64,000 bases of DNA from Nitrosopumilus sp. (GCA_965197525.1 OZ240211.1:864001-928000); one strand, 5' to 3'. Counted from the stretch's first letter, positions 5,606 to 64,000 are shown. Notes: generated by a model not told the origin, from the sequence alone. Translations and numbers: made by a program.

Positions 5606-5791
5606 TTATTGCGCAGTAATTGTCAGTTTTCCATTTAGGGAAACAGCACCTGTTGGGATTATTTTGCCATCTTTTTCCACTTTGCCTTTCAACTCAAGAT
5701 TCTCAAAATCATAGGTGATTGAGGCATGTTTTTGGGTCAGTTTGTCAAATACTTCTGCAAGCAGATTTGCCCACTCTTGTTCTTCGGCCAT
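5606..5791 (-). CDS. Hypothetical protein
   Basis: 61-aa ORF co-oriented with 5219-5596. Confidence 0.65.
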   Translation of the reverse strand: MAEEQEWANLLAEVFDKLTQKHASITYDFENLELKGKVEKDGKIIPTGAVSLNGKLTITAQ

Positions 5792-49198: not shown

Positions 49199-50281
49199 GA
49201 GTGGCGTTATCAAGTCTTTGCAATTGATTTTCTGAATAGATACCGTTCAATATTTTGATTGAATGTAGCGGTTCTTAGATATTTCATTGCGGCTCGTGCA
49301 CGTTCGCTAACATGTTCATGGCGTTCATACATGAAAGGTTGAATTTTTAACTGGTGCCAACATTCTTCAATTGCACTAAATTCAGGACATCCTGTAGGCA
49401 AATACATTATTCGCAGTCGAGAACTGTTTTCTTTTACAAATTTTTTAAATGTCTTTGTTTTATGTTGGGATGCTGCATCCATGACAATGGCTACCTTGTC
49501 AGATAGTTCCAATAGTTTTTTGACAAATTTGAGAAATGTCGAACCGTTGAATTTTTTTTTCTGTAAAAAATATTGATGTGAGTCTGATATTGCACCATAA
49601 ATTATACGTCTCCGATGTCTCCAAAATATGCTCTGAATATTTTTTGACCCACCGGAGACCATGGGCCGCGCTTTGTGACATAGTCATGCATCAGTTGTTT
49701 CATCCTGTATATACATCTCAAAACCGTCCCGTTTTACGCATGAAATCCACCGTTTCAGGGATTTTTGCCACTCTTCCATCTGTTCACTAGATGCCTTGTT
49801 TTTGTGTGCGGAATCCTGGTACCTTTGGAGTAAAGTTATGACGACGCAGTATGTCGCGTATTCCAGATTCGGTGTATTTTACTCCTGTATCTTTTTTTAT
49901 TTTATGTACGAGTTGTTTTGGAAAAATACCGTTTTTAACACCTGCAAAAAATTCTGTAATCTTATGATTTACTATTTTTGTCGGGCGTCCGGATCTTGGT
50001 TTTTCATACAATCCTGCAACTCCAAATTCTTTAAATCGCATAACCCAATTTTTAATTGTGTTGTAAGATTTGTAAAACAACTGTGCGATTATTGAAATCG
50101 TTTCGCCTTCCTCTATGACATTTAACACTGCAAGCATCCGTTCTTTTGCTTTTGGGTTTAATTCCCTCTTGTAGACACACATTAATTCCACATTCTGGTT
50201 TTTCACGATGGGCAGTAAATGCTTCAAGCTATAAATGTTTCTAGTGTTTTTGAAAATTGCAAAGACTTTTTGACGTCACTC
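49199..50281 (-). mobile_element. IS630-family element with degenerate transposase (49787-50227 + 49210-49662)
   Basis: TIR TAGAGTGGCGTTATCAAGTCTTTGCAATT vs TAGAGTGACGTCAAAAAGTCTTTGCAATT (25/29), TA at both ends; HTH, MDAASQH, YLP...PEFSAIE; frameshifts and a stop. Confidence 0.88.
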
Positions 50282-50283
50282 TA

Positions 50284-51302
50284 ACAGACGAGGTGTCCCA
50301 GTCAGAGAGGTCTCCGTTAAATACACGAGCATATTCGAACATGAATGACATGTTGGTAACAGACGAGGTGTTCCAGTTGGAGATATCACCGTTAAATTTG
50401 CCGGTATTGGCAAACATCTCAAACATGGTGGTAACAGACGAGGTGTTCCAGTTGGAGATATCACCGTTAAATTTGTGGGTATTGGCAAACATGGCAAACA
50501 TGCCTGTAACAGACGATGTGTTCCAGTTAGAGAGGTCTCCGTTAAATTCGTGGGCACTGCCGAACATGTTGGACATGTTGGTAACAGACGAGGTGTTCCA
50601 GTTAGAGAGGTCTCCGTTAAATTCGCCGGCAAAGTAGAACATCTCGAACATGTTGGTAACAGACGAGGTGTCCCAGTTAGAGAGGTCTCCGTTAAATTCG
50701 CCGGCAAAGTAGAACATCTCGAACATGTTGGTAACAGACGAGGTGTTCCAGTTAGAGAGGTCTCCGTTAAATTGGCTTGCGTAGCGGAACATGCCAGACA
50801 TGTCAGTAACCTGGGACAGATCAGGTGCATCAGTGGCGTGGTAGGTCATCTGACTGGCACCGCGGAATGCATTCTTCATAGTAGACCACTGGATGTCACC
50901 CCATTGGTTAATTGAGTGAAGTAACGTAGGTGTGGAGCCACTGCCGTCAAGATTTATTCTCGACAGGTCGCCAGTCATGGTAACACGGTAAGAGGCAGGT
51001 GTAGTGTATGTGTGTGTGACTTGGCCGTTAGAATTTACCGTGGTTGTGTCACCATCACCCCAATCTATAGTCAAGATTCCTCCTGAATGTATATCTACAG
51101 GTATACGTATCTTCTGGTTGATCCCAGTCGTAACCCATGTAGTCAGAAATGGATCATCTGTTTGTGTTTGCGCGTAGGCGTATATTGGAATTTCTGTGTA
51201 TACAGTATCGTGTAATGAATCTAACTTGTCCACTAAAAACATGTCCAGTTGTGTTGCAGTCAACATACTGACAGATATCAAAAGTATAATACTTAGAATC
51301 AA
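50284..51302 (-). pseudogene. BspA/DUF285 leucine-rich-repeat surface protein, interrupted by IS5 (5') and IS630 (3')
   Basis: 25-aa repeats FNGDLSNWNTSSVTNM..MF; truncated at IS630 end. Confidence 0.88.
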
Positions 51303-51313
51303 TGTTCTATATT

Positions 51314-52812
51314 AGAACTTATGAGCAATCCCAAAATATAAGAAAAAAAAACTCCAGTCACAAAGTCAAAAATAATAAAAATATTCCATACAACGCATCA
51401 TCAAGACGACATTCTCATATGTTTGATATTTTCATTATGCCATGCCTGAAATTCATGCGCAGACGTGTAGCACTGCAATGTGCACTGAACTAACTATGTA
51501 GCGGTATCTTGACTGGTGGCAACATTTGTCTTATCCCAGTCTATTACCGGTCTTGGATTATCATTCACAGGCGGTCCCTTCTCCATCTTATCCCACAAGA
51601 GCTCCAGGTTTACAAGTCCGGTTATGATGTTAAATTCATTATTAAATTCACTGACTGTTCCATTGTATGGGGCAACAAGTCTACCGTATCGTTTTAGCCT
51701 GCCAATACTGTGCTCTACCTTTACCCTGATGGAATTGACGTTGTGGTTTTCTTTTTTCTCTTTTGGTGTAAAATGTCTATGATTCTTGCTTCTCTTGTGT
51801 GGTTGTTGGGTAATTGTGCCTGGCAGTTCCTTTTCAATTCCCTTGTACCCCAGGTCCGTAAAGAGATGAACACGATCCTCATCAGGGATATCCTCACTGC
51901 ACATCTTCTCCCACCATATTCCAAATGGCAGTGGACTACTCTCTCTGAGTAATGTAATGTCGCGGATGGATCCCAAAGTGCTCTTTGATGCAGCCACAAT
52001 GACTCCGTTATCATTTATGCATACAGTGGTGTTAAACGTAAACTTTTTCTTTTTTCCAGAATATGTTATGCTTCTCATCTGGTTGTTACTAGGTCTATTC
52101 ACAGGACAATGAGTACCGTCAACCATGGCGATACCTCCATCAGGTCCGGGCATTATTTTTTTAAACTCTTCTTTTGTTTTTGCATTTGCTATATCTTTTG
52201 AAATGTTGCTGGCTGTAGGTAGCACTATACTCAACATAGAATCCATGATTTTGATGTATCGTGATACTGCAGCTTGATCCACTCCAAATAATGTAGCAAG
52301 GGATCCCTGTGTGGGATTGCCTTTTTTGTATATCAACGCCATGAGTAGTGCGTGTCTGAGATACAGCTTGCAGTGATTCCCTGCATCAGATGACCTGTCA
52401 TCATTATCTCTGAACAAGAGGGATTTGTTGTCTTGTTTCATGCATAGTGTTGCCACCATGCACCGAGTAGAGGTGTTCGATGAGATTATCAATAATGATG
52501 CAAAGATTCATGATGCCACATTAACGGATGTGGCCAAGTTCCAGTACCTGCTTGCCAGGGCAGCCTGCCCTGCAACTCCTGATTCAGAACCATTCCGAGT
52601 ATTCCAGAGATCTCGTTCGTGTCTGATGATCTCTTCCTGACGCTTGTTTTTTTCTCTAAGAATTTTAATCTCTTTTTGTAAACGCTTTATTTCTTGTTTT
52701 GACAACAATATGACTGGTATCTTTTAATTTTAACAGGTTAAATCATAAATTTTTGACAGCAATGTTAACGCATCTATGGCCGATCTGAGAATCAGGATTA
52801 CTCATAAGTTCT
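51314..52812 (-). mobile_element. IS5/ISL2-Harbinger-type element (DDE_Tnp_4 transposase 51494-52492 plus 52508-52708)
   Basis: 18-bp TIR AGAACTTATGAGCAATCC / GGATTACTCATAAGTTCT; 3-bp TSD ATT; VDGTH, YSGKKK, TDLGYKG, VEHSIG. Confidence 0.88.
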
Positions 52813-53452
52813 ATTGTGAGTATCTGCAGAGGTTGAGATATTTGGTAACGCCGCGTGGTGTACGTTCTTCTATTGCCGACAATATGTGTAACATTCTACT
52901 CTCCGCCTAATCTCTCTCTCTCTCTCCCCACAACAGCATTCTTCAGACTAGCTAAAACTATAGTCAATATTGCAGTCAGAGAGGAGTTTGAGAATTGGAT
53001 GTCACGTATACAGAATCTGTTTTTATTGTTCTTGGAAATGTACTTGTCAGTATTGTTACTATTGTTATTATTAATATAATTTGCCATTATTTGGGGCTGT
53101 TAAGTTCATGGTAGATAATTCTTGCTGTTAAGGGTCGGTAGATGATTGTGATTTAGACACCACGTGTAGAATTTTGGATGGTATTATATCATCCTCGTTC
53201 TCATACTCGTATACTGTATCCAGAGTATCTGTAAAACCAGCGGTTCTTTCTGTTCTGACCATAACAATCATCATTATCCATAGTATTCTTTTAACTTTTC
53301 TAATACAGGGTTCTGTTAACTTATCGTCGCTTAATTCTTCCTGTTAACTGTCGAGGGGTGAGTGTTCTGTCGGTTCTGTCTAATAATGGGGATATGGAAT
53401 AGATGTCAGGGGTTAAACCCTGTTGTTAATTGTCAGTAGTTTTATGGTGATT

Positions 53453-54652
53453 TCATAGTTCTGTCTTACCCTTACCGAACTTCATGCCCTCTGCAACCAG
53501 CACGGCATTAAGTTCAGTCATGGTAAGCTTTCCGCCCTTCCGTCTGTTGCAGTTACCACAAAGTAGTTGAAGGTTTTTGTCATCATCCTGACCACCCTTT
53601 GCTTTTGGTATGATGTGATCTACCTCCAAATCCTTGAATAGATAATGGTATTTACAACCGTTGCAGTACCCATGTTGGATTCCGTATAACGTATGCTTGA
53701 CATCCTTGGATCGCCTACCCTTTCTTTTTGGTATATCCGTTCTTTGTATAACTTGTCCTGCGCTAGTAATGAACTTGGCAATTCCTGCATCTTTCTTGAG
53801 TCTTTGTTCAATCAACGAATAGGCTCTTTCTGATATATCGCACCCTATCCATTTTCTGCCCTGTTTCTCTGCTGCAAGACAATCTGTGGCACAGCCACAA
53901 AAGGGGTCAAACACCATTCCACCAGTGTAACTGCTGGCTTTTATGATTCGTTCCAAAAGTGCAAGTGGTTTTTGCGTATGGTGGCCAAGCCTTTCTGAAC
54001 CCTTGACACCAGATATGTCAGTCCAGATGTTCTACAAAGGCAGTCCCTTTGCATCATCAAGATATATCTTATAACGTGGAAGTCCACCTTTTTTCTTTGG
54101 GTAATGCAACATATCATTTTTTTCTAACTCCAACATAGATTCTAACGCTCTCTTCCAGATTCTCATATGCCCCTTGTATTCATACTCGTACCCTCCGCCT
54201 GACAGACTTTTAGCAGTTAATTGTTCATGGCTATAATATCCACGATCATCCTTGTTCTTGAAATTTTTCTTTTTGTATTCCTCCGAGTATGGAAGATAGA
54301 CATCATTCCATGTGTAGTCTCTGGTCTTGGAGTAAAACAGTATCTGGTCAGAAATCTTCCCGTATCTCTTGCTGTCATTGTGAGAACTGGTTCGTTTCCA
54401 CGTTATGTCGTTTCGGAATGATTCCGCACCAAATATTGAATCCAGTACCAGCTTGAGATAATGGCTCATTGTGGTGTCGCAGTGCAGGTACAACGAACCT
54501 GTTGATTTTAGAATTCTATGCATCTCCAAAATCCTAATTGCCATGTATATCAGATACGACATTGTAGATTTTCCTCCTACTTTGCCAGCAGTTCCTATAA
54601 TCGAATACAAGGATTCGTTGATCTCTGCAATCTCGGTGCACTCAAAGGACAA
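53453..54652 (-). pseudogene. 5'-truncated, nonsense-mutated copy of the DNA methyltransferase-HNH fusion
   Basis: Near-identical to 56403-57830; CAG>TAG at 54032-54034; lacks DPPF; HNH half intact. Confidence 0.9.
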
Positions 54653-54748
54653 ACTCCAGCAGAATCAGCTAAAATCACGGTTGGCGGAATAAATCGTTGG
54701 AAAACAATTATAGAAAACGCTTCATTGCACAAGCAAAATTCAGTCTAA
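54636..54748 (+). pseudogene. IS6-type transposase 3' fragment
   Basis: LKGQTPAESAKITVGGINRWKTIIENAS matches LDGDTPADRAGIRVKGDNKWKTIIQNAS. Confidence 0.75.
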
Positions 54749-54756
54749 TAGAATTG

Positions 54757-54828
54757 TGATGGTAGTGGGAATTGAACCCACGTCGTATGGGTCGGAATCC
54801 ATACATCATACCACTAGACCATACAACC
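54757..54828 (-). tRNA. tRNA-like sequence with 8-nt anticodon loop (possible pseudo-tRNA)
   Basis: D arm GTCTAGTGGTATGAT; perfect T arm GTGGG-TTCAATT-CCCAC; anticodon stem TATGG/CCATA around ATTCCGAC; weak acceptor stem. Confidence 0.6.
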
Positions 54829-55049
54829 AAAAATAAATTGCCTCCTGCTTTCCGACGAACTGTGCCCAGTCCAACAGGAGGTATGCTTATTCTAATCGGG
54901 TAAACCGACAGAACACACACAACAAGCTTGTAACATCATAATATTATATACCATATATAAGAATATTATTAGCCTAAAGATTCAGCACCCGAAGATTACA
55001 CAGAACCTTCGATCGCAATCATTTTATATAACTATTCTAATACTTAGTA

Positions 55050-55637
55050 ATGACTTTTAAAATAATAAAAACAATACTGTTTACATCTTTGATTACTGCA
55101 ATGATTCTTCCATTTGGAATGGATTATGCATTTGCAGATCATCCAGACACAGATGTATGGAGCACTGATAGAGAATTTGATATTCAATCATCATTGAATA
55201 ACATATCTCATGCAAGTTTTACACCAGCTACAGATTTTGAAGACGCTGCAGACGTATGGAACTCTGTGAGTAATTCGTGGTGGGACTTTACAAGAGATGA
55301 TTCAAGTAATGATGTAGAAATTGGTGCATGGTTTATGGGTTGGCATATATCCACATTAGCTGAAACCACATGGTATGACAGTGGGGGTTACATGTTATGG
55401 GCTTTTATCGATTTTAACAGTGCTAAAGATTTTAGAGATGTAAATGTATCTCAAGGATGGATGTCTTATGACTATGAAACTGTTGCCATCCATGAAATCG
55501 GACATGTTGCTGGTATCCATGATCATACAACAACATCAAGCTCACCTATGATAGCTTCAATTTCAGTCAATACTGTAGATAGAACATTGAACAGCCATGA
55601 TAAAGCAACAATTAGGGGGATGTATCAAGATGAATAA
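55050..55637 (+). CDS. Secreted matrixin-like zinc metalloprotease
   Basis: Signal peptide; HEIGHVAGIHDH; Met-turn SSPMIA. Confidence 0.85.
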   Translation: MTFKIIKTILFTSLITAMILPFGMDYAFADHPDTDVWSTDREFDIQSSLNNISHASFTPATDFEDAADVWNSVSNSWWDFTRDDSSNDVEIGAWFMGWHISTLAETTWYDSGGYMLWAFIDFNSAKDFRDVNVSQGWMSYDYETVAIHEIGHVAGIHDHTTTSSSPMIASISVNTVDRTLNSHDKATIRGMYQDE

Positions 55638-56199
55638 AAAACTATTACTACCTCTTTTGGTACTTGTGGTAATTCCTGTTCTTGTATTTAGTCAACCAGA
55701 TGCTGATACAATAGGGAAACAATTTGCAGTTGATAACCCAGGTATATCTATTGGTGTTAGTACTTTAGAAGAGGCTTTAACAGAAGAGCAAGAGATCAAC
55801 AGAGCATCTCTTATTGTTGAAGGAACTATACTAGAAGCCAAACCATACTGGAAGATTATCCATAATGATAAACCACCTAGAATTTACACCGAATTTACTG
55901 TTAAAGTAGATGATGTCATCAAAGGTGATATAAATTCTCAAACTATCACATTTGTAGTGGGTGGTGGTGATTTAGATGGAATAATTTCTAGAACAGAGTC
56001 AGTAGATCTAACTGTGGGAGAACAAGTAATTTTATTACTTGGAAAAGACATCTATAGTATATTTGGGGACACATACAACCCAATATCTATCTCAAAATCT
56101 ATTTACAAAATTGAAGATGGTCAAGCAATAAACAAACTAGATGATAGAACAGGCAACAAAGACGACGTAAAAGAGAGAATATCTGATCTATTAAGATAG
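55597..56199 (+). CDS. Secreted/membrane hypothetical protein coupled to the protease
   Basis: Signal peptide; ASLIVEGTI...IYTEFTVKVDDVIKG. Confidence 0.75.
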   Translation: MIKQQLGGCIKMNKKLLLPLLVLVVIPVLVFSQPDADTIGKQFAVDNPGISIGVSTLEEALTEEQEINRASLIVEGTILEAKPYWKIIHNDKPPRIYTEFTVKVDDVIKGDINSQTITFVVGGGDLDGIISRTESVDLTVGEQVILLLGKDIYSIFGDTYNPISISKSIYKIEDGQAINKLDDRTGNKDDVKERISDLLR

Positions 56200-56402
56200 A
56201 TACCCTTATCTTTTTTTTATGAATATTAGTTAAAGAATTATAAAATAACATCATATGTCATAAATTGTGCGAATTGACTGCTGCAGGAATTGTGGGAAGT
56301 TATTAAAAGTGTTGGAATATGGTTCTGTGTAATCTTCGGGTGCTGAGATTATGAGTTCTGTTAACTTGACGGGATCTAACTCTTTCTGGTAAGTGTCAGG
56401 AG

Positions 56403-57830
56403 CTAGGATCCAGAACGCCCCTTGCCGAACTTCATGCCCTCTGCAACTAGCACGGCATTAAGTTCAGTCATGGTAAGCTTTCCGCCCTTCCGTCTGTTGC
56501 AGTTACCACAAAGTAGTTGAAGGTTTTTGTCATCATCCTGACCACCCTTTGCTTTTGGTATGATGTGATCTACCTCCAAATCCTTGAATAGATAATGGTA
56601 TTTACAACCGTTGCAGTACCCATGTTGAATACCGTATAGCGTATGCTTGATGTCCTTGGATCGCCTGCCTTTTCTTTTTGGTATATCCGTTCTTTGTATG
56701 ACTTGTCCTGCACCAGTAATGAACTTGGCAATACCTGCATCTTTCTTGAGTCTTTGTTCAATCAGCGAATAGGCTCTTTCTGATATATCGCACCCTATCC
56801 ATTGTCTACCCAATCTCTCTGCCGCAAGACAAGCTGTTGCACATCCACAAAACGGATCAAACACGATTTCTCCTACGTTACTGCTTGTCTCAATGATGCG
56901 CTCCAGTAATGCCAGTGGTTTTTGCGTGGGATAACCAAGTCTTTCCTGACCTCGAACATTTGGAATATCAGTCCAGATGTTCTGTAGTGGTACACCTTTA
57001 GCATCTTTCAGGTATATCTTGCGACGAGGCAGTCCACCCTTCTTCTTTGGATAGTGTATCATGTCGTTCCTTTCCAACCCTAGCATAGATTCTAACGGTC
57101 GTTCCCATGTCCTTATGTGTCCCTTATACTCATACTCATATCCCCCAGCCGATAAGTTCTCGGCAGTCAATTTCTCGTGACTGTAACGTCCACGCCCGTC
57201 CTCATTCTTGAAATTCTTCTTGGTGTATTCTTCCGAGTACGGCAGATATACATCATTCCATGTGTAGTCTCTGGTCTTGGAGTAAAACAGTATCTGGTCA
57301 GAAATCTTCCCATATCTCTTGCCGTCATTGTGAGAACTGGTTCGTTTCCACGTTATGTCGTTTCGGAATGATGCTCCACCAAATATTGAATCCAGTACCA
57401 GCTTGAGATAATGACTCATTGTGGTATCGCAGTGCAGGTACAACGAACCCGTTGATTTTAGAATTCTGTGCATCTCCAAAATCCTAATTGCCATGTATAT
57501 CAGATACGACATTGTAGATTTTCCTCCTACTTTGCCAGCAGTTCCTATAATCGAATACAAGGATTCGTTGATCTCTGCAATCTCACCCCACCATGCAACA
57601 TCCACATCACTAAGTGTCCATGTGTCCTTAAACTCGACACCTGCTGCCTTTGATCCTATTGGTGCAGCATAATTGTGTTTGGAATTGAACGGAGGATCAA
57701 GATAAATCAAATCTACACCTTCATCTTCCATACCTCTCATAACAGGCAGATTATCGGCTGTGAAGATAGTTCGATTTTTAATGGTCAAAATGACCACCTT
57801 GAATAACATGATTTGATTTGATTGCTTCAA
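56403..57830 (-). CDS. N6/N4 DNA methyltransferase fused to a C-terminal HNH endonuclease
   Basis: IYLDPPF, YPTQKP, DPFCGCAT; CNGC...EVDHIIP..GG.....NLQLLCGNCNRRK. Confidence 0.92.
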   Translation of the reverse strand: MKQSNQIMLFKVVILTIKNRTIFTADNLPVMRGMEDEGVDLIYLDPPFNSKHNYAAPIGSKAAGVEFKDTWTLSDVDVAWWGEIAEINESLYSIIGTAGKVGGKSTMSYLIYMAIRILEMHRILKSTGSLYLHCDTTMSHYLKLVLDSIFGGASFRNDITWKRTSSHNDGKRYGKISDQILFYSKTRDYTWNDVYLPYSEEYTKKNFKNEDGRGRYSHEKLTAENLSAGGYEYEYKGHIRTWERPLESMLGLERNDMIHYPKKKGGLPRRKIYLKDAKGVPLQNIWTDIPNVRGQERLGYPTQKPLALLERIIETSSNVGEIVFDPFCGCATACLAAERLGRQWIGCDISERAYSLIEQRLKKDAGIAKFITGAGQVIQRTDIPKRKGRRSKDIKHTLYGIQHGYCNGCKYHYLFKDLEVDHIIPKAKGGQDDDKNLQLLCGNCNRRKGGKLTMTELNAVLVAEGMKFGKGRSGS

Positions 57831-57862
57831 AAATATTATTGGAAGGAAGTACCCCTATTGTG

Positions 57863-58224
57863 GGTTCTTGGTTCTTGGTTCTTGGTTCTTGGTTCTTGGT
57901 TCTTGGTTCTTGGTTCTTGGTTCTTGGTTCTTGGTTCTTGGTTCTTGGTTCTTGGTTCTTGGTTCTTGGTTCTTGGTTCTTGGTTCTTGGTTCTTGGTTC
58001 TTGGTTCTTGGTTCTTGGTTCTTGGTTCTTGGTTCTTGGTTCTTGGTTCTTGGTTCTTGGTTCTTGGTTCTTGGTTCTTGGTTCTTGGTTCTTGGTTCTT
58101 GGTTCTTGGTTCTTGGTTCTTGGTTCTTGGTTCTTGGTTCTTGGTTCTTGGTTCTTGGTTCTTGGTTCTTGGTTCTTGGTTCTTGGTTCTTGGTTCTTGG
58201 TTCTTGGTTCTTGGTTCTTGGTTC
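57863..58224. repeat. Heptamer tandem repeat (GGTTCTT)51 plus GGTTC
   Basis: Perfect 7-bp period over 362 bp. Confidence 0.95.
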
Positions 58225-58230
58225 ATATCA

Positions 58231-58395
58231 TCACATACTCGGTTTTAGAATCAGTTTGTTTCCAATGATTTTAGCTTCCAATTCCTGTCCTTTGTTCCAC
58301 TCCAGTTTTTTTACTTCTTCCTTTGAAAGATTGATGTACCATCTTCGATATTCCTTGTCACCTACACGTCTGTTTATCTTGTCTTGTAACTTCAT
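58231..58395 (-). CDS. 54-aa AbrB/MazE-like DNA-binding protein (not in ORF track)
   Basis: MKLQDKINRRVGDKEYRRWYINLSKEEVKKLEWNKGQELEAKIIGNKLILKPSM. Confidence 0.7.
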   Translation of the reverse strand: MKLQDKINRRVGDKEYRRWYINLSKEEVKKLEWNKGQELEAKIIGNKLILKPSM

Positions 58396-58409
58396 ATCTT
58401 TTAATTATA

Positions 58410-58474
58410 TAGACCCCTAATAAACAAATCGGTTTATTTGTAGGGGTCTAAACATTTATATTATTAGGGGTCTA
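58410..58474. promoter_or_regulatory. Putative operator in the divergent AbrB/transposase promoter
   Basis: TAGACCCCTA at 58410-58419 with inverted copies at 58441-58450 and 58465-58474. Confidence 0.6.
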
Positions 58475-58603
58475 ATACTATTGTATGAAAAGAACTGCAA
58501 TGATGAAAAAAGAATCAAAGGGTATGGGACACCCAATGATGAGATTGTTACGATCTGAGTACTCTTTTCTGTCCCACTTTATAATTTTTGAGGTGTCGTA
58601 CCT

Positions 58604-59728
58604 ATGAACGCAAGACAGGCAAGAGGTCAAACCATTGTAGAAAAACAGGGTCAGATCAGAAGAATAAACGACACACAATACGAGATCAAAAGCCAAAACA
58701 GTGATTCTCTATACGATGTGGTTGGCACTGAGTTTGGATGGTCGTGTTCATGTCCCGATCATCAGTTCCGTAAGGTTTGCTGTAAACATATCCATGCAGT
58801 CGAAATATCAATCAAGATACATCAAAAGGTGTATGATGATGTGGTAATTTCAGAAGTTACCATTGACACGTGCAAATACTGCAAATCGGCAAACATAACC
58901 AAGATGGGAGTACGTCACAACAAAAATTATGACGTTCAGATGTTTAGTTGCAAAGACTGTAACAGAAAGTTTTCAATCAATTTGGGATTTGAGAAGATGA
59001 GGGCTACACCAGACCAAATCACAATGGCTATGAACCTGTACTTTAACGGTGAATCCACAAGAAAGACTGCACAGTCGTTGTTACTCACTGGAATCAAGGT
59101 ATCAAACGTCACCATACACAACTGGATAAAGAAATACGTTGATCTTATGGATAGGTATTTGGAAAAGATTACACCTCAAGTGGGTGAATCATGGAGGACT
59201 GATGAGATGTATTTGAAGATCAAGGGTGACAAAAAATACATGTTTGCCATGTTAGATTCTGAGACTAGATTTTGGTTGGCACAGATGGTCTCAGAACACA
59301 AGGGGAATGATGATGTATCGCCAATGTTCAAACAGGCTAAATGCACTGCCAACAAAGTGCCATCAACCCTAATATCTGACGGAGCTGCAAACTTTCATCA
59401 TGCTTGGAAAGAACAATACAAGGCAAAGAATTTCTTACACAAGGACACAGAACACGTAAGGCACATACATCTTGCAGGCGATATGAACAACAACCAAATG
59501 GAATCCTTTAACGGTAATACCATGAGGTTGCGTGAGAGTGCTACAAGAGGAATCAAAAAAGATGATTCTGTCATATTCAAGGGTATGCAAATCCATCACA
59601 ACTTTGTCAGACCTCATCAAAGTTTAGATGGTGATACTCCAGCAGACAGGGCCGGTATCAGGGTTAAAGGTGACAACAAATGGAAAACCATAATTCAGAA
59701 CGCTTCAATGGTACCTACCAACCCTTAA
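58604..59728 (+). CDS. IS6-family DDE transposase with N-terminal SWIM and Zn-ribbon domains
   Basis: CSCPD..CKH; CKYC/CKDC; WRTDEMY, LISDG, NNNQMESFN, HNFVRPH. Confidence 0.92.
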   Translation: MNARQARGQTIVEKQGQIRRINDTQYEIKSQNSDSLYDVVGTEFGWSCSCPDHQFRKVCCKHIHAVEISIKIHQKVYDDVVISEVTIDTCKYCKSANITKMGVRHNKNYDVQMFSCKDCNRKFSINLGFEKMRATPDQITMAMNLYFNGESTRKTAQSLLLTGIKVSNVTIHNWIKKYVDLMDRYLEKITPQVGESWRTDEMYLKIKGDKKYMFAMLDSETRFWLAQMVSEHKGNDDVSPMFKQAKCTANKVPSTLISDGAANFHHAWKEQYKAKNFLHKDTEHVRHIHLAGDMNNNQMESFNGNTMRLRESATRGIKKDDSVIFKGMQIHHNFVRPHQSLDGDTPADRAGIRVKGDNKWKTIIQNASMVPTNP

Positions 59729-60007
59729 CAGCAAGAATTACCTACCGTGAACTTAACAGCCCCCATTATTTTTTACCATTATTTTGTAGACAACGATACG
59801 GTAATTGACCGGAGGTTTCTTTATCGTATTTTTGACAACTTGAAGTTTTACCAAGCACATTGTCTTGATTGGGATCAGTAACAACACTACTTGAAAGAAT
59901 TACAAAAGTCACATTCAGTATTAAAAACAACCATCATATAACAAAGAGGTCATCTAAACTAGTCTTAGACCGATAATAATATACATGATTAACGGTGAAA
60001 TCTTGAT

Positions 60008-63000
60008 ATGAACATGCTGAGAATTCATCCCATGATGGCAGTCATGGCCATTGTGGTAGTGACTGTATCTTTGTTACTTTTCCAGTACTATGATGTCAGT
60101 TTTGCGTCTGCCTATATGACTGACCCTGTGATCACGATAACTGACAGCCCCCCCCCCCACCTCCACACACCTGTAACGGTAACTACCTCAGAGATACAGC
60201 AGTCGGCAGCCAGTTTTCTGAACCGTGAGTACGGGCGAATCGACGTACTCAACCCGCAGTCCTATCCTGTAGTGGGCGGGGAGTGGACGATAAACTTTAG
60301 GACATACGGTACCCATAACCTAACAATCTCTGTAATAAACGGCACCACGTTTGGGGACTCTTCTCCTGACGACGTGGGGTTTGTGGAGGTATTGTGCGGC
60401 AACGACTCCATACTGGATGCTACAGCACATGATGGGATCATTACGTTTGAGGACTATCAGTGCGACGGCATCGCAAGCCTCGTGCTATCGGTTCACACCC
60501 CTGGCATACACGACATACATCTAAGCTTTGGTGTGGATACTGCGTACGCATCAAACAACGCGTATCCAAACTCCGTAGTGGAGATAAACAGCTCCACTAC
60601 AAACGGTCCCACGCTATCAGACGATGACAGTTTCGGCGTCTCCGTTGCTTCCATAGGCGACCTTGACGGCGACGGGGTGACAGACCTTGCAGTTGGTGCT
60701 TATCAAGATGACAACGGCGGCGGATCAAACCGCGGCGCCGTACACATAATGTTTATGAATATGGACGGTACGATAAACAGCACAGTAGAGATAAACGACT
60801 CCACTACAAACGGTCCCACGCTATCAAACAATGACAATTTCGGCTTCTCCGTTGCTTCCATAGGCGACCTTGACGGCGACGGGGTGACAGACCTTGCAGT
60901 TGGTGCTTATCGAGACGACGAGGGCGGATCAGACCGCGGCGCAGTACACATAATGTTTATGAATACAAACGGTACGGTAGACAGCACAGTAGAGATAAAC
61001 AGCTCCACTGCAAACGGTCCCACGCTATCAAACGATGACCGTTTCGGCGTCTCCGTTACTCCCATAGGCGACCTTGACGGCGACGGTGTGACAGACCTTG
61101 CAGTTGGTGCTTATCAAGACGACGAGGGCGGACGAGACCACGGCGCAGTACACATAATGTTTATGAATATGGACGGCACGATAAACAGCACAGTAGAGAT
61201 AAACGACTCCACTACAAACGGTCCCACGCTATCAAGCTTTGACCGTTTCGGCTTCTCCGTTACCCCCATAGGCGACCTTGACGGCGACGGGGTGACAGAC
61301 CTTGCAGTTGGTGCTGTTCAAGATAACGACCGCGGATCAGACCGCGGCGCCGTACACATAATGTTTATGAATATGGACGGTACGGTAGACAGCACAGTAG
61401 AGATAAACAGCTCCACTACAAACGGTCCCACGCTATCAAACAATGACAATTTCGGCTTCTCCGTTGCTTCCATAGGCGACCTTGACGGCGACGGGGTGAC
61501 AGACCTTGCAGTTGGTGCTTATCGAGACGACGAGGGCGGATCAGACCGCGGCGCCGTACACATAATGTTTATGAATACTGACGGTACGGTAGACAGCACA
61601 GTAGAGATAAACGACTCCACTACAAACGGTCCCACGCTATCAAACGATGACAATTTCGGCACCTCCGTTGCTTCCATAGGCGATCTTGATGGTGACGGGG
61701 TGACAGACCTTGCAGTTGGTGCTTATCAAGACGACGAGGGTGGAGAGGATCGCGGCGCCGTACACATAATCTTCATTAATGACATAAGAACTGCCGGAAA
61801 CGGCTCTGTTGACAGCACAGTAGAGATAAACGACTCCACTGCAAACGGTCCCGCGCTATTAGACAATGACCGTTTCGGCGTCTCCGTTACTCCCATAGGC
61901 GACCTTGACGGCGACGGTGTGACAGACCTTGCAGTTGGTGCTAATCGGGATGACGACGGCGGACTAGACCGCGGCGCCGTACACATAATGTTTATGAATA
62001 TGGACGGCACGATAAACAGCACAGTAGAGATAAACGACTCCACTGCAAACGGTCCCACGCTATCAGACAATGACCGTTTCGGCATCTCCGTTGCTTCCAT
62101 AGGCGACCTTGACGGCGACGGGGTGACAGACCTTGCAGTTGGTGCTCATCTAGACAACGAGGGTGGAACAGACCGCGGCGCCGTACACATAATGTTTATG
62201 AATACAAACGGTACGGTAAACAACACAGTAGAGATAAACGACTCCACTGCAAACGGTCCCACGCTATCAAACAATGACCGTTTCGGCTTCTCCGTTACCC
62301 CCATAGGCGACCTTGACGGCGACGGGGTGACAGACCTTGCAGTTGGTGCTTTTCAAGACGACGACGGCGGATCAGACCGCGGCGCAGTACACATAATGTT
62401 TATGAATACAAACGGTACGGTAGACAGCACAGTAGAGATAAACAGCTCCACTGCAAACGGTCCCACGCTATCAAACGATGACCGTTTCGGCGTCTCCGTT
62501 ACTCCCATAGGCGACCTTGACGGCGACGGGGTGACAGACCTTGCAGTTGGTGCTTATCAAGACGACGACGGCGGAGCAGACCGCGGCGCCGTACACATAA
62601 TGTTTATGAATATGGACGGCACGATAAACAGCACAGTAGAGATAAACGATTCCACTACAAACGGTCCCACACTATCAGACGATGACAGTTTCGGCTTCTC
62701 CGTTGCTTCCATAGGCGACCTTGATGGTGACGGGGTGACAGACCTTGCAGTTGGTGCTTATCAAGACGACGAGGGTGGAACAGACCGCGGCGCCGTACAC
62801 ATAATGTTTATAAATATGGACGGCACGATAAACAGCACAGTAGAGATAAACAGCTCCACTGCAAACGGTCCCACGCTATCAAACGATGACCGTTTCGGCT
62901 TCTCCGTTGCTTCCATAGGCGACCTTGACGGCGACGGGGTGACAGACCTTGCAGTTGGTGCTTATCAAGACGACGAGGGTGGAACAAACCGCGGCGCCAT

Positions 63001-64000
63001 CAATGTCATATATCTTGACAAAGAGGTACTGGTCCGTGCCGTATCCTCTACAACCGCAGACGGTACCTACGGATCAGGAGAGACAGTAGACATTACCATC
63101 AAATTCTCAGAACCAGTCACCGTAACTGGGACACCTCAACTCGCACTTGATACCAATCCTTCAAGGCAGGGCAACTATTCATCAGGCTCAGGCACTGACA
63201 CCCTTACCTTCAAGTACGAGGTACAGACTGGAGATACATCTGCAGATCTCCAATATGCTTCAGAGAGCTCATTGATGCTGGTGGAGGGAGTGACGACTAT
63301 TACTGCCCTAAAAAGCCCGAGTGAGGATGCTGTCCCTACACTCCCGGATCCTGTAATAATGTTTGGCTTTAACCCTCTAGGCGCATTCGGATCCCTTGGG
63401 CAAAACAAAGATATTAAAATTGATACCACTGCCCCCACGGTAACAGACACCACTCCGCCCCGTGTTGCCTCCATACTGCGTGATACCCCTCTAGCTCAAT
63501 CCACAACTGATACCACCTTGGTGTTTGCTGTCACGTTTGATGAGCCGGTAATCAATGTGGGTGTTGCTGACTTTACAGTAGCAGGCAACGGTACGGGTAC
63601 AATATCTGGCGTATCAGGTTCCGGTACATCATACCGAGTAACAGTCACAGTAGATAATGTTGGAACCATAGGATTGGATATCGCACAAAACCACGACATA
63701 CAGGATACTGCAACCAACCGTTTGGCCAACCTGACACCTACCGGCTCTGATCAGACCTACACAGTCACGGTACCAGACACCACTGCCCCCACGATACCAG
63801 ACACCACTCCGCCCCGCGTTGCCTCCATTGTTGACAGGACAGTAGAGATAAACGACTCCACTGCAAACGGTCCCACGCTATCAAACAGTGACCGTTTCGG
63901 CGTCTCCGTTGCTTCCATAGGCGATCTTGATGGTGACGGGGTGACAGACCTCGCAGTTGGTGCTAATCGAGATAACGACGGTGGAGCAAACCGCGGCGCC
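60008..64000 (+). CDS. Giant surface protein with FG-GAP (integrin-alpha-like) repeats and Ig-like domains; runs off the window
   Basis: Signal peptide; 12 near-identical repeats of about 68 aa (FG.SV..IGDLDGDGVTDLAVGA...RGAVHIMF) at about 60580-63020, an Ig-like region, and a 13th repeat from about 63840; frame spot-checked at 60581, 62843 and 63842. Confidence 0.9.
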   Translation, partial: MNMLRIHPMMAVMAIVVVTVSLLLFQYYDVSFASAYMTDPVITITDSPPPHLHTPVTVTTSEIQQSAASFLNREYGRIDVLNPQSYPVVGGEWTINFRTYGTHNLTISVINGTTFGDSSPDDVGFVEVLCGNDSILDATAHDGIITFEDYQCDGIASLVLSVHTPGIHDIHLSFGVDTAYASNNAYPNSVVEINSSTTNGPTLSDDDSFGVSVASIGDLDGDGVTDLAVGAYQDDNGGGSNRGAVHIMFMNMDGTINSTVEINDSTTNGPTLSNNDNFGFSVASIGDLDGDGVTDLAVGAYRDDEGGSDRGAVHIMFMNTNGTVDSTVEINSSTANGPTLSNDDRFGVSVTPIGDLDGDGVTDLAVGAYQDDEGGRDHGAVHIMFMNMDGTINSTVEINDSTTNGPTLSSFDRFGFSVTPIGDLDGDGVTDLAVGAVQDNDRGSDRGAVHIMFMNMDGTVDSTVEINSSTTNGPTLSNNDNFGFSVASIGDLDGDGVTDLAVGAYRDDEGGSDRGAVHIMFMNTDGTVDSTVEINDSTTNGPTLSNDDNFGTSVASIGDLDGDGVTDLAVGAYQDDEGGEDRGAVHIIFINDIRTAGNGSVDSTVEINDSTANGPALLDNDRFGVSVTPIGDLDGDGVTDLAVGANRDDDGGLDRGAVHIMFMNMDGTINSTVEINDSTANGPTLSDNDRFGISVASIGDLDGDGVTDLAVGAHLDNEGGTDRGAVHIMFMNTNGTVNNTVEINDSTANGPTLSNNDRFGFSVTPIGDLDGDGVTDLAVGAFQDDDGGSDRGAVHIMFMNTNGTVDSTVEINSSTANGPTLSNDDRFGVSVTPIGDLDGDGVTDLAVGAYQDDDGGADRGAVHIMFMNMDGTINSTVEINDSTTNGPTLSDDDSFGFSVASIGDLDGDGVTDLAVGAYQDDEGGTDRGAVHIMFINMDGTINSTVEINSSTANGPTLSNDDRFGFSVASIGDLDGDGVTDLAVGAYQDDEGGTNRGAINVIYLDKEVLVRAVSSTTADGTYGSGETVDITIKFSEPVTVTGTPQLALDTNPSRQGNYSSGSGTDTLTFKYEVQTGDTSADLQYASESSLMLVEGVTTITALKSPSEDAVPTLPDPVIMFGFNPLGAFGSLGQNKDIKIDTTAPTVTDTTPPRVASILRDTPLAQSTTDTTLVFAVTFDEPVINVGVADFTVAGNGTGTISGVSGSGTSYRVTVTVDNVGTIGLDIAQNHDIQDTATNRLANLTPTGSDQTYTVTVPDTTAPTIPDTTPPRVASIVDRTVEINDSTANGPTLSNSDRFGVSVASIGDLDGDGVTDLAVGANRDNDGGANRGA
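60148..60158 (+). repeat. C11 homopolymer inside the 5' coding region
   Basis: GACAG-C11-AC; currently in frame. Confidence 0.9.

Follow-up and report, generated by a model that had tools for sequence, protein, structure and literature searches.

The stretch of DNA analysed here (the window; 64,000 nucleotides, bases 864001-928000 of OZ240211.1, assembly GCA_965197525.1) belongs to the genome of a Nitrosopumilus sp. and harbors, at 53093-59763, a gene-carrying transposon of the insertion sequence (IS) family IS6, which is 6,671 bp long without the flanking duplication. The source assembly is metagenome-derived and consists of one 2.21-Mb contig with a G+C content of 39.6%; the values observed per kb across the element (0.35-0.42) are not distinct from that of the genome. 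For comparison, 150 other Nitrosopumilus genomes were searched. The features of the element are listed below in window coordinates, and positions in the whole contig are marked as genome positions.

53085-53092: left copy of the target-site duplication (TSD), CATTATTT; the octamer is single in a paralog at genome 1861200-1861207
53093-53141, + strand: outer left terminal inverted repeat (TIR), IRL-A; GG tip and two GCTGTTAAG boxes, complementary to 59715-59763 at 46 of 49 positions
53308-53358, + strand: inner TIR-like sequence B'-1, directly downstream of the pseudogene that follows and oriented as IRL-A; 86% identical to the TIRs of a sibling element at 700 kb of the genome
53453-54652, - strand: pseudogene of a fused methyltransferase (MTase) and HNH nuclease, MTase-HNH; residues 1-81, including DPPF, are gone, one in-frame TAG is present, and homology stops at 54633
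54633-54748, + strand: C-terminal fragment (last ~37 codons) of a type X IS6-type transposase, aligning with transposase 3' ends at genome 748k, 1960k and 2002k
54756-54828, - strand: tRNA-like gene (Rfam tRNA, 48.6 bits); anticodon loop of 8 nt, a single U.C mismatch in the acceptor stem, CCA not encoded
54982-55007: IRR-X, right end of a truncated type X element, facing leftwards; left arm of a 26-nt perfect inverted repeat (IR)
55050-55637, + strand: matrixin-like zinc metalloprotease, secreted, with a HEIGHVAGIHDH motif
55597-56199, + strand: protease partner protein with an N-terminal hydrophobic segment; the gene overlaps the protease gene
56321-56346, + strand: IRL-X, stub of a second type X copy, sharing the type X terminus; right arm of the 26-nt perfect IR
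56354-56402, + strand: inner TIR-like sequence B'-2, abutting the stop codon of the intact MTase-HNH gene; left limit of the part collinear with the 3.19-kb sibling
56403-57830, - strand: intact MTase-HNH, 475 amino acids (aa) in a single chain, beta-class DNA MTase plus HNH nuclease
57863-58224: (GGTTCTT)x51.7 array, 100% perfect, between the AbrB-like gene and MTase-HNH
58231-58395, - strand: predicted small DNA-binding protein of 54 aa with an AbrB/MazE fold; gene divergent from that of the transposase
58410-58474: three exact TAGGGGTCTA boxes, the two direct ones bracketing the TATA-like TTTATATT
58604-59728, + strand: IS6-type transposase, 374 aa, with SWIM finger, Cys4 ribbon and DDE domain
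59715-59763, - strand: outer right TIR, IRR-A, with GCTGTTAAG twice; covers the last 14 nt of the transposase open reading frame (ORF)
59764-59771: right copy of the TSD, CATTATTT, directly outside IRR-A

Ends of the element and its insertion site

Both outer arms are abutted by exact copies of the octamer CATTATTT. An ORF with many FG-GAP repeats and more than 1,331 codons begins 237 bp downstream of the insertion point. The upstream region of this FG-GAP-repeat gene, which was hit by the insertion, is a multi-copy repeat with at least five further copies in the same genome. In the paralog at genome 1861200-1861207, the sequence to the left of 53093 joins that to the right of 59763, and CATTATTT is found once; the flanks are also contiguous at genome 390105/390106, where the octamer has diverged. 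Since the octamer is single in a contiguous paralog, the TSD is real and was made by insertion of the DNA between the two outer arms. Thus, the element entered as one unit into a copy of a genome-specific repeat, duplicating 8 bp.

These data agree with the preliminary description of the locus, made from the sequence of the window, which had reported 49-bp TIRs with an internally repeated motif, a TSD and a transposase whose end lies within the right TIR (14 nt inside, as found here). The uninterrupted target paralog that it had placed at 1-261 of the window is real, with better paralogs at genome 1861 kb and 390 kb, and the search for empty sites that it had proposed yielded these two contiguous sequences. 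It had also named a doubled octamer in an empty allele as evidence against an insertion; the paralog at genome 1861200-1861207 has a single one.

It could be argued that only the right 3.4 kb (56354-59763) constitutes the element, with the outer left TIR as a solo relic and the octamers as a coincidence, since this part aligns collinearly with complete 3-kb siblings and its left boundary is TIR-like. The inner end, however, resembles IRR-A only moderately and shows many mismatches in a six-way alignment, whereas the outer pair agrees at 46 of 49 positions; no direct repeat is found at 56354, and the paralogs run seamlessly from 53092 to 59772. This explanation is thus very improbable, and the outer TIR pair is regarded as the boundary of the element.

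The neighborhood of the element contains, ~600 bp to its left, an IS5-like transposase gene (window 51494-52492, - strand; DDE_Tnp_4 and HTH_Tnp_4 domains), and a gene for a DUF285/PKD repeat protein at window 50241-51302. To the right, the very large FG-GAP-repeat protein gene (window 60008-64000, + strand) has a G+C content of ~0.52, compared with 0.40 for the genome, and is built by a tandem repeat of 204-bp units (60577-62998).

Transposase, family assignment and probable regulator

The transposase matches the Pfam family DDE_Tnp_IS240 (PF13610) with 53.2 bits (cut-off, 27), and its best NCBIfam match is the IS6 family transposase (NF033587; E-value, 1.8e-30), with a score of 106 bits that lies below the curated cut-off of 125. 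The SWIM finger sits at the N-terminus of the protein, and D200, D259 and E300, as well as eight Cys/His positions, are invariant in an alignment with ten relatives. According to the literature, the hallmarks of IS6 are 8-bp repeats, 15-20-bp IRs with a GG tip and cTGTt, and a length of ~800 bp (PMC7986276). The end of the element reads GGGGCTGTTAAG..., i.e., it has the GG tip and CTGTT as in the IS6 consensus, and the 'caaa' motif is TAAG here. Hence, a DDE-type transposase with its triad, an 8-bp duplication and GG tip/CTGTT ends are all found, but not the compactness of the family (0.7-0.9 kb, up to 1.76 kb, with 15-20-bp IRs), as the element has 6,671 bp and 49-bp two-box ends, and the smallest autonomous sibling found has 1,970 bp.

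The likeness to the IS6/IS26 group (IS26, IS257, IS6100, IS240; PMC7986276) comprises the IS240/IS6-type DDE transposase, the 8-bp duplication, the GG/CTGTT ends, the location of the transposase stop within the right end and, probably, an inner cassette arranged between same-direction remnants as in an IS26 pseudo-compound transposon. Classical members, in contrast, have 0.7-0.9 kb, one gene and 15-20-bp IRs, whereas the present element has 6.7 kb (2-5 kb in its siblings), two-box ends of 49-60 bp, N-terminal SWIM and Cys4 fingers in a transposase of 374 aa, and an AbrB-fold gene with operator-like boxes. The mode of transposition is visible as footprints in the sequence, i.e., the same-direction type X stubs around the protease cassette, a deletion beside an end in another genome (G154) and the junction at 56353/56354 described below. 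By analogy, the transposition chemistry would follow that of IS26, with cointegrates or targeted conservative integration, and the zinc-finger DDE transposase would act on the long two-box ends.

The sole passenger-carrying IS6 member named in the 2021 review of Varani et al. (PMC7986276) is the transporter IS ISDsp3, which likewise has passengers within one TIR pair and one transposase. ISDsp3 carries one hypothetical gene, whereas the relatives described here have a restriction-modification (R-M)-type slot that differs between close relatives, and tRNA-like genes and TnpB are also found on the same kinds of ends. Within the TIRs of the present element, one intact transposase is accompanied by MTase-HNH, the protease, its partner and the tRNA-like gene. 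The assignment to IS6-family transporter elements, made in the preliminary description, has therefore been retained: the passengers lie between one functional TIR pair with one intact transposase and were inserted as a unit. It also generalises, as siblings of 2-5 kb that combine ends of this kind and 8-bp TSDs with different cargo are present in this and other Nitrosopumilus genomes. Judged by its sequence features, the element is a genuine single-transposase IS6-type cargo transposon.

The AbrB-like protein scores below the cut-off of Pfam PF04014 (E-value, 0.003), and its counterpart in a related element of another genome (G014) scores above it. The AlphaFold model of the protein (pLDDT, 91.8) has a beta-beta-alpha-beta-beta order, and its top Foldseek matches are C56, MazE, AbrB, SpoVT and VapB (probability, 0.87-0.99). 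Homologues were found in 18 of the 150 genomes of the genus; in 8 of the 19 loci fetched, the gene is divergent from an IS6-type transposase gene located ~100-400 bp away. The three TAGGGGTCTA boxes, contained within 65 bp, have no further match in the 64-kb window, even when one mismatch is allowed. At equivalent places, the siblings have two or three boxes each, with other sequences (TAGGTACCTA, TAGGCACCTA, TATGGTACCATA and TATGATATCATA), and two boxes 24 bp apart are found around a TTTATAT motif; the boxes thus co-vary between the sibling elements. The preliminary description had counted this gene as cargo: its presence and, from the model, its AbrB fold have been confirmed, but it appears to belong to the transposition machinery, as a core gene. 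Most likely, the AbrB-fold protein would bind the three TAGGGGTCTA boxes around the promoter region, acting as a private repressor of both the transposase and its own cargo operon at a shared promoter region.

As in Type II R-M operons with a C-protein, the gene for a small DNA-binding protein comes first, and repeated operator-like boxes are found in its promoter region. The predicted fold, however, is AbrB/MazE and not helix-turn-helix, and the boxes separate the operon from the transposase gene, so that one protein may control both.

The heptamer array is the sole one in the genome, and changes in its copy number could alter downstream expression. A minus-strand ORF (58226-57855), which starts 4 nt past the stop of the AbrB-like gene, translates the array into (NQEPRTK)n. 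Its stop codon is separated by 25 nt from the TTG start codon of MTase-HNH and would shift with the repeat number modulo 3.

Mosaic interior, sibling elements and related copies

The 26-nt perfect IR around the protease genes is made of type X ends. A full type X copy at genome 746475-748444 has the TSD CTATTGTG and perfect 30-nt TIRs that begin GGGTTCTGTGTAATCTTCG, and the first ~19 nt of the 26-nt arms (GGTTCTGTGTAATCTTCG) match these TIRs. Both arms face outward, and the two type X remnants, one representing the last 375 bp and the other ~33 bp, share the same 26-nt terminus and lie in the same direction. It follows from these two facts that the protease/partner pair is placed between two direct remnants of one IS, a layout that, by analogy, is probably that of an IS26-type pseudo-compound transposon. 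Reading the 26-nt IR as the ends of a small protease element was rejected on account of the outward-facing arms. Family searches with the partner protein returned no match.

The tRNA-like gene belongs to the same remnant. Similar genes are found after the transposase stop at genome 1960237-1960323 and 2002247-2002334, the former inside a 4.1-kb type X element (genome 1956395-1960520; TSD, TTTAATAG). As tRNA-like genes are present in other type X copies, the one in the window is a regular type X passenger that required no separate acquisition. The transposase fragment and the tRNA-like gene, listed as cargo in the preliminary description, are therefore both there, but as the 3' end of a type X element and not as separate items. 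Insertion of type X elements beside tRNA genes was also considered, and rejected because the tRNA-like gene lies within the TSD-bounded copy 1956395-1960520. ARAGORN assigns a four-base anticodon to the gene at 54756-54828, which shares 57 of 73 positions with the nearest genomic tRNA and lacks both the 7-nt anticodon loop and the fully paired acceptor of a tRNA; its fold energy (z, -1.3) is unexceptional alone, and the support comes from the covariance model. Odd extra tRNA-like genes also occur elsewhere in the genome (two Leu-taa, 'Asp-atc', Leu-cag and a long Arg-tct), the extra loci being 1960237-1960323, 2002247-2002334, 615040-615126, 828334-828421, 1904518-1904602 and, in locus L023, 2161-2261. 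At least four of them are located in or beside IS6-type elements, usually ~20 bp past the transposase stop and convergent with it.

The MTase-HNH pseudogene shares 87.5% nucleotide identity with 56418-57583 of the intact copy, which argues against a fresh duplication, and it appears to be the relic of a second MTase-HNH module. The sequences 53308-53358 and 56354-56402 are extra left-type ends, each directly downstream of an MTase-HNH copy. From 56354 to 59763, the core, made of transposase, divergent AbrB-fold gene and MTase-HNH, shows the same order as the 3,190-bp element at 700 kb. This sibling has 60-nt TIRs, a transposase of 60% identity, a small ORF, a tRNA-like sequence, and a frameshifted MTase-HNH that is 77-94% identical. 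In another species (G155), a 2.98-kb element encodes an MTase-HNH with 86% identity and a transposase with only 38%. The 8-bp TSDs found in siblings are CTATTGTG, TTTAATAG, AAAAATAG (G014) and CTCTATTG (G155).

Every item of the cargo list in the preliminary description has been located. Independent acquisition of these items as a set of passengers, in contrast, was not upheld, as they resolve into a core, a decayed module and a protease cassette; the cargo thus reads as a layered record of earlier IS6-type events, and not as chosen passengers.

A further sibling of 5.1 kb, at genome 583727-588872 (L024, 4227-9372), has 51-nt TIRs (88%), no TSD, a transposase apparently without its N-terminal part, and a cargo of two proteins of no known family, a small CxxC ORF and a nested rve-type IS. 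A methylase gene and a gene with an HNH-like C-terminus are located just outside it. In addition, four elements of 1.33-1.44 kb (genome 724290-725621, within L102 = 724201-725700, and 838811-840157, 1567235-1568566 and 1649168-1650609) are bounded by type X ends and have a TnpB-like protein (Cas12f1-like TNB and RuvC) as their sole product. Three of the four have 8-bp TSDs (TTTTTGGA, CAGCCCTT and TTATTCTT), and the first three are 95-97% identical, from which recent mobilisation in trans by an IS6-type transposase is probable.

Comparison of the cargo across related genomes, as proposed in the preliminary description, showed that the left 3.26 kb of the element is present in another Nitrosopumilus species (G154; record OZ244732.1, locus L031), where it starts at the same TIR tip. 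Window positions 53089-55009 are found there at 99.6% identity and 55413-56353 at 99.8%, compared with 71-79% for other, ordinary homologous DNA of the two genomes. The IRL-A core sequence is the same in both loci, and the match begins exactly at the IRL-A tip, beside an unrelated flank; no synteny with the present genome was found in the flanks. The match stops exactly at 56353 and is followed by another IS6-type end (GTACACTGTTCAAAACTCGGG...), a Fic gene and an interrupted transposase; no partner for this neighboring type D end was found within 19 kb, and IRR-A was not found anywhere in that genome. The partner protein is 99.5% identical in this species, and the protease/partner pair is 93% identical in a further genome (G007). 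The match breaks off at 55009, right next to the type X right end, and the gap of 403 bp that begins there in G154 looks like an end-adjacent deletion.

At 56353/56354 of the window and at 5712/5713 of L031, the same left-hand DNA gives way, at exactly the same base in the two species, to different IS6-type elements (with MTase-HNH and Fic, respectively). Left ends are likewise doubled or in tandem in the 700-kb element, where they are spaced by 59 bp, in G014 (spacing, 133 bp) and in G162. The identical junction and the doubled ends suggest landing beside, or exchange at, related element ends; either repeated insertion at a preferred spot or transposase-mediated end exchange would fit the same-base junction in two genomes.

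The mosaic interior, with ends or fragments of at least two other IS6-type lineages, and the single-copy status of the full element in all genomes searched might also reflect growth in place, i.e., insertion of a short type A element followed by nested insertions, so that the 6.7 kb never moved whole. In G154, however, the left 3.26 kb is joined to IRL-A at another site, with 99.6-99.8% identity and the junction at the TIR tip, and the internal pieces have no end pair or TSD of their own, unlike fresh nested insertions. As the left arm was already assembled at IRL-A in a different site, it has moved on the outer left end at least one more time, which speaks against growth in place and makes this scenario improbable. 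A chimeric repeat join in the metagenome-derived assembly is less probable still, to the point of being hardly credible. The region is full of repeats and IS fragments, and perfect arrays such as the 52-unit heptamer tract are typically mishandled by assemblers; nevertheless, exact TIR/TSD geometry and seamless paralogous empty sites are unlike a misjoin, and the left 3.26 kb was independently assembled in G154 with the same internal order.

Thus, it is probable that 53093-59763 is an IS6-family cargo transposon consisting of a working right core and accreted left debris, which moved on its outer TIRs. The core would correspond to the right ~3.4 kb, and the debris to the left ~3.3 kb, comprising a decayed second MTase-HNH module with its own end and the protease/partner pair between type X remnants; the whole block would move, or would recently have moved, on the outer TIR pair. 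Several results weigh against this reading. A second full copy, for which other genomes were searched as the preliminary description had suggested, was found neither in this genome nor in the 150 others, so that current activity is no more than a possibility; the left-part copy in G154 was the positive outcome of that search, but its right half is lost or replaced, and no second complete insertion is documented. The right flank and its repeat were not found in the 150 other genomes, so that no orthologous empty site is available, and the empty sites described above are paralogs with 93% identity. No TSD was found for two siblings (700 kb and 585 kb). The Foldseek E-values of the AbrB-like model are weak (0.1-1), the fold resting on the consistency of the top matches. 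Finally, the PADLOC matches on the element were limited to methylase models, and the AbrB-like gene, the protease and its partner received none.

Role of MTase-HNH and relation to known systems

The intact MTase-HNH matches PF01555 (E-value, 5e-44) and PF01844 (E-value, 1e-13), and the DPPF motif is present. The methylase part belongs to class beta (N6A/N4C), its nearest relatives of solved structure being M.MboIIA, CcrM and RsrI, and the nuclease part is a Cys4 HNH domain that resembles those of the IscB/Cas9 type. Methyltransferase motifs and a nuclease domain are, by sequence, combined in one protein, as in a single-chain R-M enzyme. At least 8000 homologues were found at E-values of 0.001 or lower, with both domains present in nearly all of the best 120; the architecture is also found in bacterial genomes, outside IS contexts. 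Among the matches listed, one from a metagenome-assembled Cenarchaeum genome is named only 'hypothetical protein', and phage homologues cover the methylase part only.

The two closest relatives of the transposase (75% aa identity) belong to TIR-bounded elements of 3.2-3.5 kb with R-M genes in the equivalent slot. In one of them (G014), the slot contains an AbrB/MazE-like gene, a D12 methylase and an R.HinP1I-type endonuclease, and in the other (G009), an N6_N4 methylase and a BsaWI-type endonuclease. Since three unrelated R-M designs are found in one slot, an R-M-like role is the best reading for MTase-HNH. By analogy, the protein most likely acts as an R-M-like module that protects or stabilises the element, which it would do from the end of an AbrB-headed operon. 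Defence or addiction, the two functions proposed in the preliminary description, are what we infer as well, neither being favored over the other, a view strengthened by the Type II R-M genes in the slot of the relatives.

An orphan, phage-type, epigenetic or anti-restriction methylase, with the HNH part aiding spread by nicking or homing, is an unlikely alternative, although a few features are in line with it. MTase-HNH is 86% identical where the transposases share 38%, and 77-94% compared with 60% within this genome; each of the three MTase-HNH copies here is followed by a separate TIR-like sequence that sits immediately within the outer end, or the stub of an end, of another IS6 type. The restriction of the listed phage homologues to the methylase part and the IscB/Cas9-like HNH domain point in the same direction. 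Against these stand the classical Type II R-M pairs in the same slot of the two nearest relatives and the great frequency of the MTase and HNH combination (nearly all of the best 120 of at least 8000 matches) far outside IS contexts; moreover, no homing-type target and no intron or intein context was seen.

R-M genes linked to transposase genes, seen as insertions when compared with empty sites, are treated as mobile R-M units by Furuta, Abe and Kobayashi (2010; PMC2853133). In the present case, a unit transposon of the IS6 type serves as the carrier, the putative regulator is shared, and the module is a single-chain MTase-HNH. A survey of thaumarchaeal mobile elements describes IS-like transposons of one or two genes (PMC6563490). 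In the literature searched, no report was found on IS6-type R-M carriers in archaea, and no relevant paper on MTase-HNH fusions on insertion sequences or on IS6-type ends around TnpB, where the results were dominated by IS605 and IS607; nor was any prior description found of a group of gene-carrying IS6 relatives.

A more far-reaching and still tentative possibility is that ammonia-oxidising archaea possess modular IS6-type 'defence shuttles', in which a constant chassis of transposase and AbrB-fold gene would have its cargo exchanged by transposase-mediated joining at related element ends. If so, this cargo would include three kinds of R-M, Fic, tRNA-like genes and TnpB, and the 56353/56354 junction would be the footprint of an end-targeted swap, an IS26-like targeted reaction between heterologous elements. 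The putative regulator with its co-varying operator-like boxes and the MTase-HNH behind a 52-unit heptamer tract are both compact and experimentally tractable. IS6/IS26 elements are known as one-gene elements that move resistance genes by flanking them in pairs, whereas this relative habitually carries genes inside its own ends. It may represent a concrete vehicle for defence-gene exchange in ammonia-oxidising archaea, and the 99.6-99.8% identity between species shows that the route of exchange has been in recent use.

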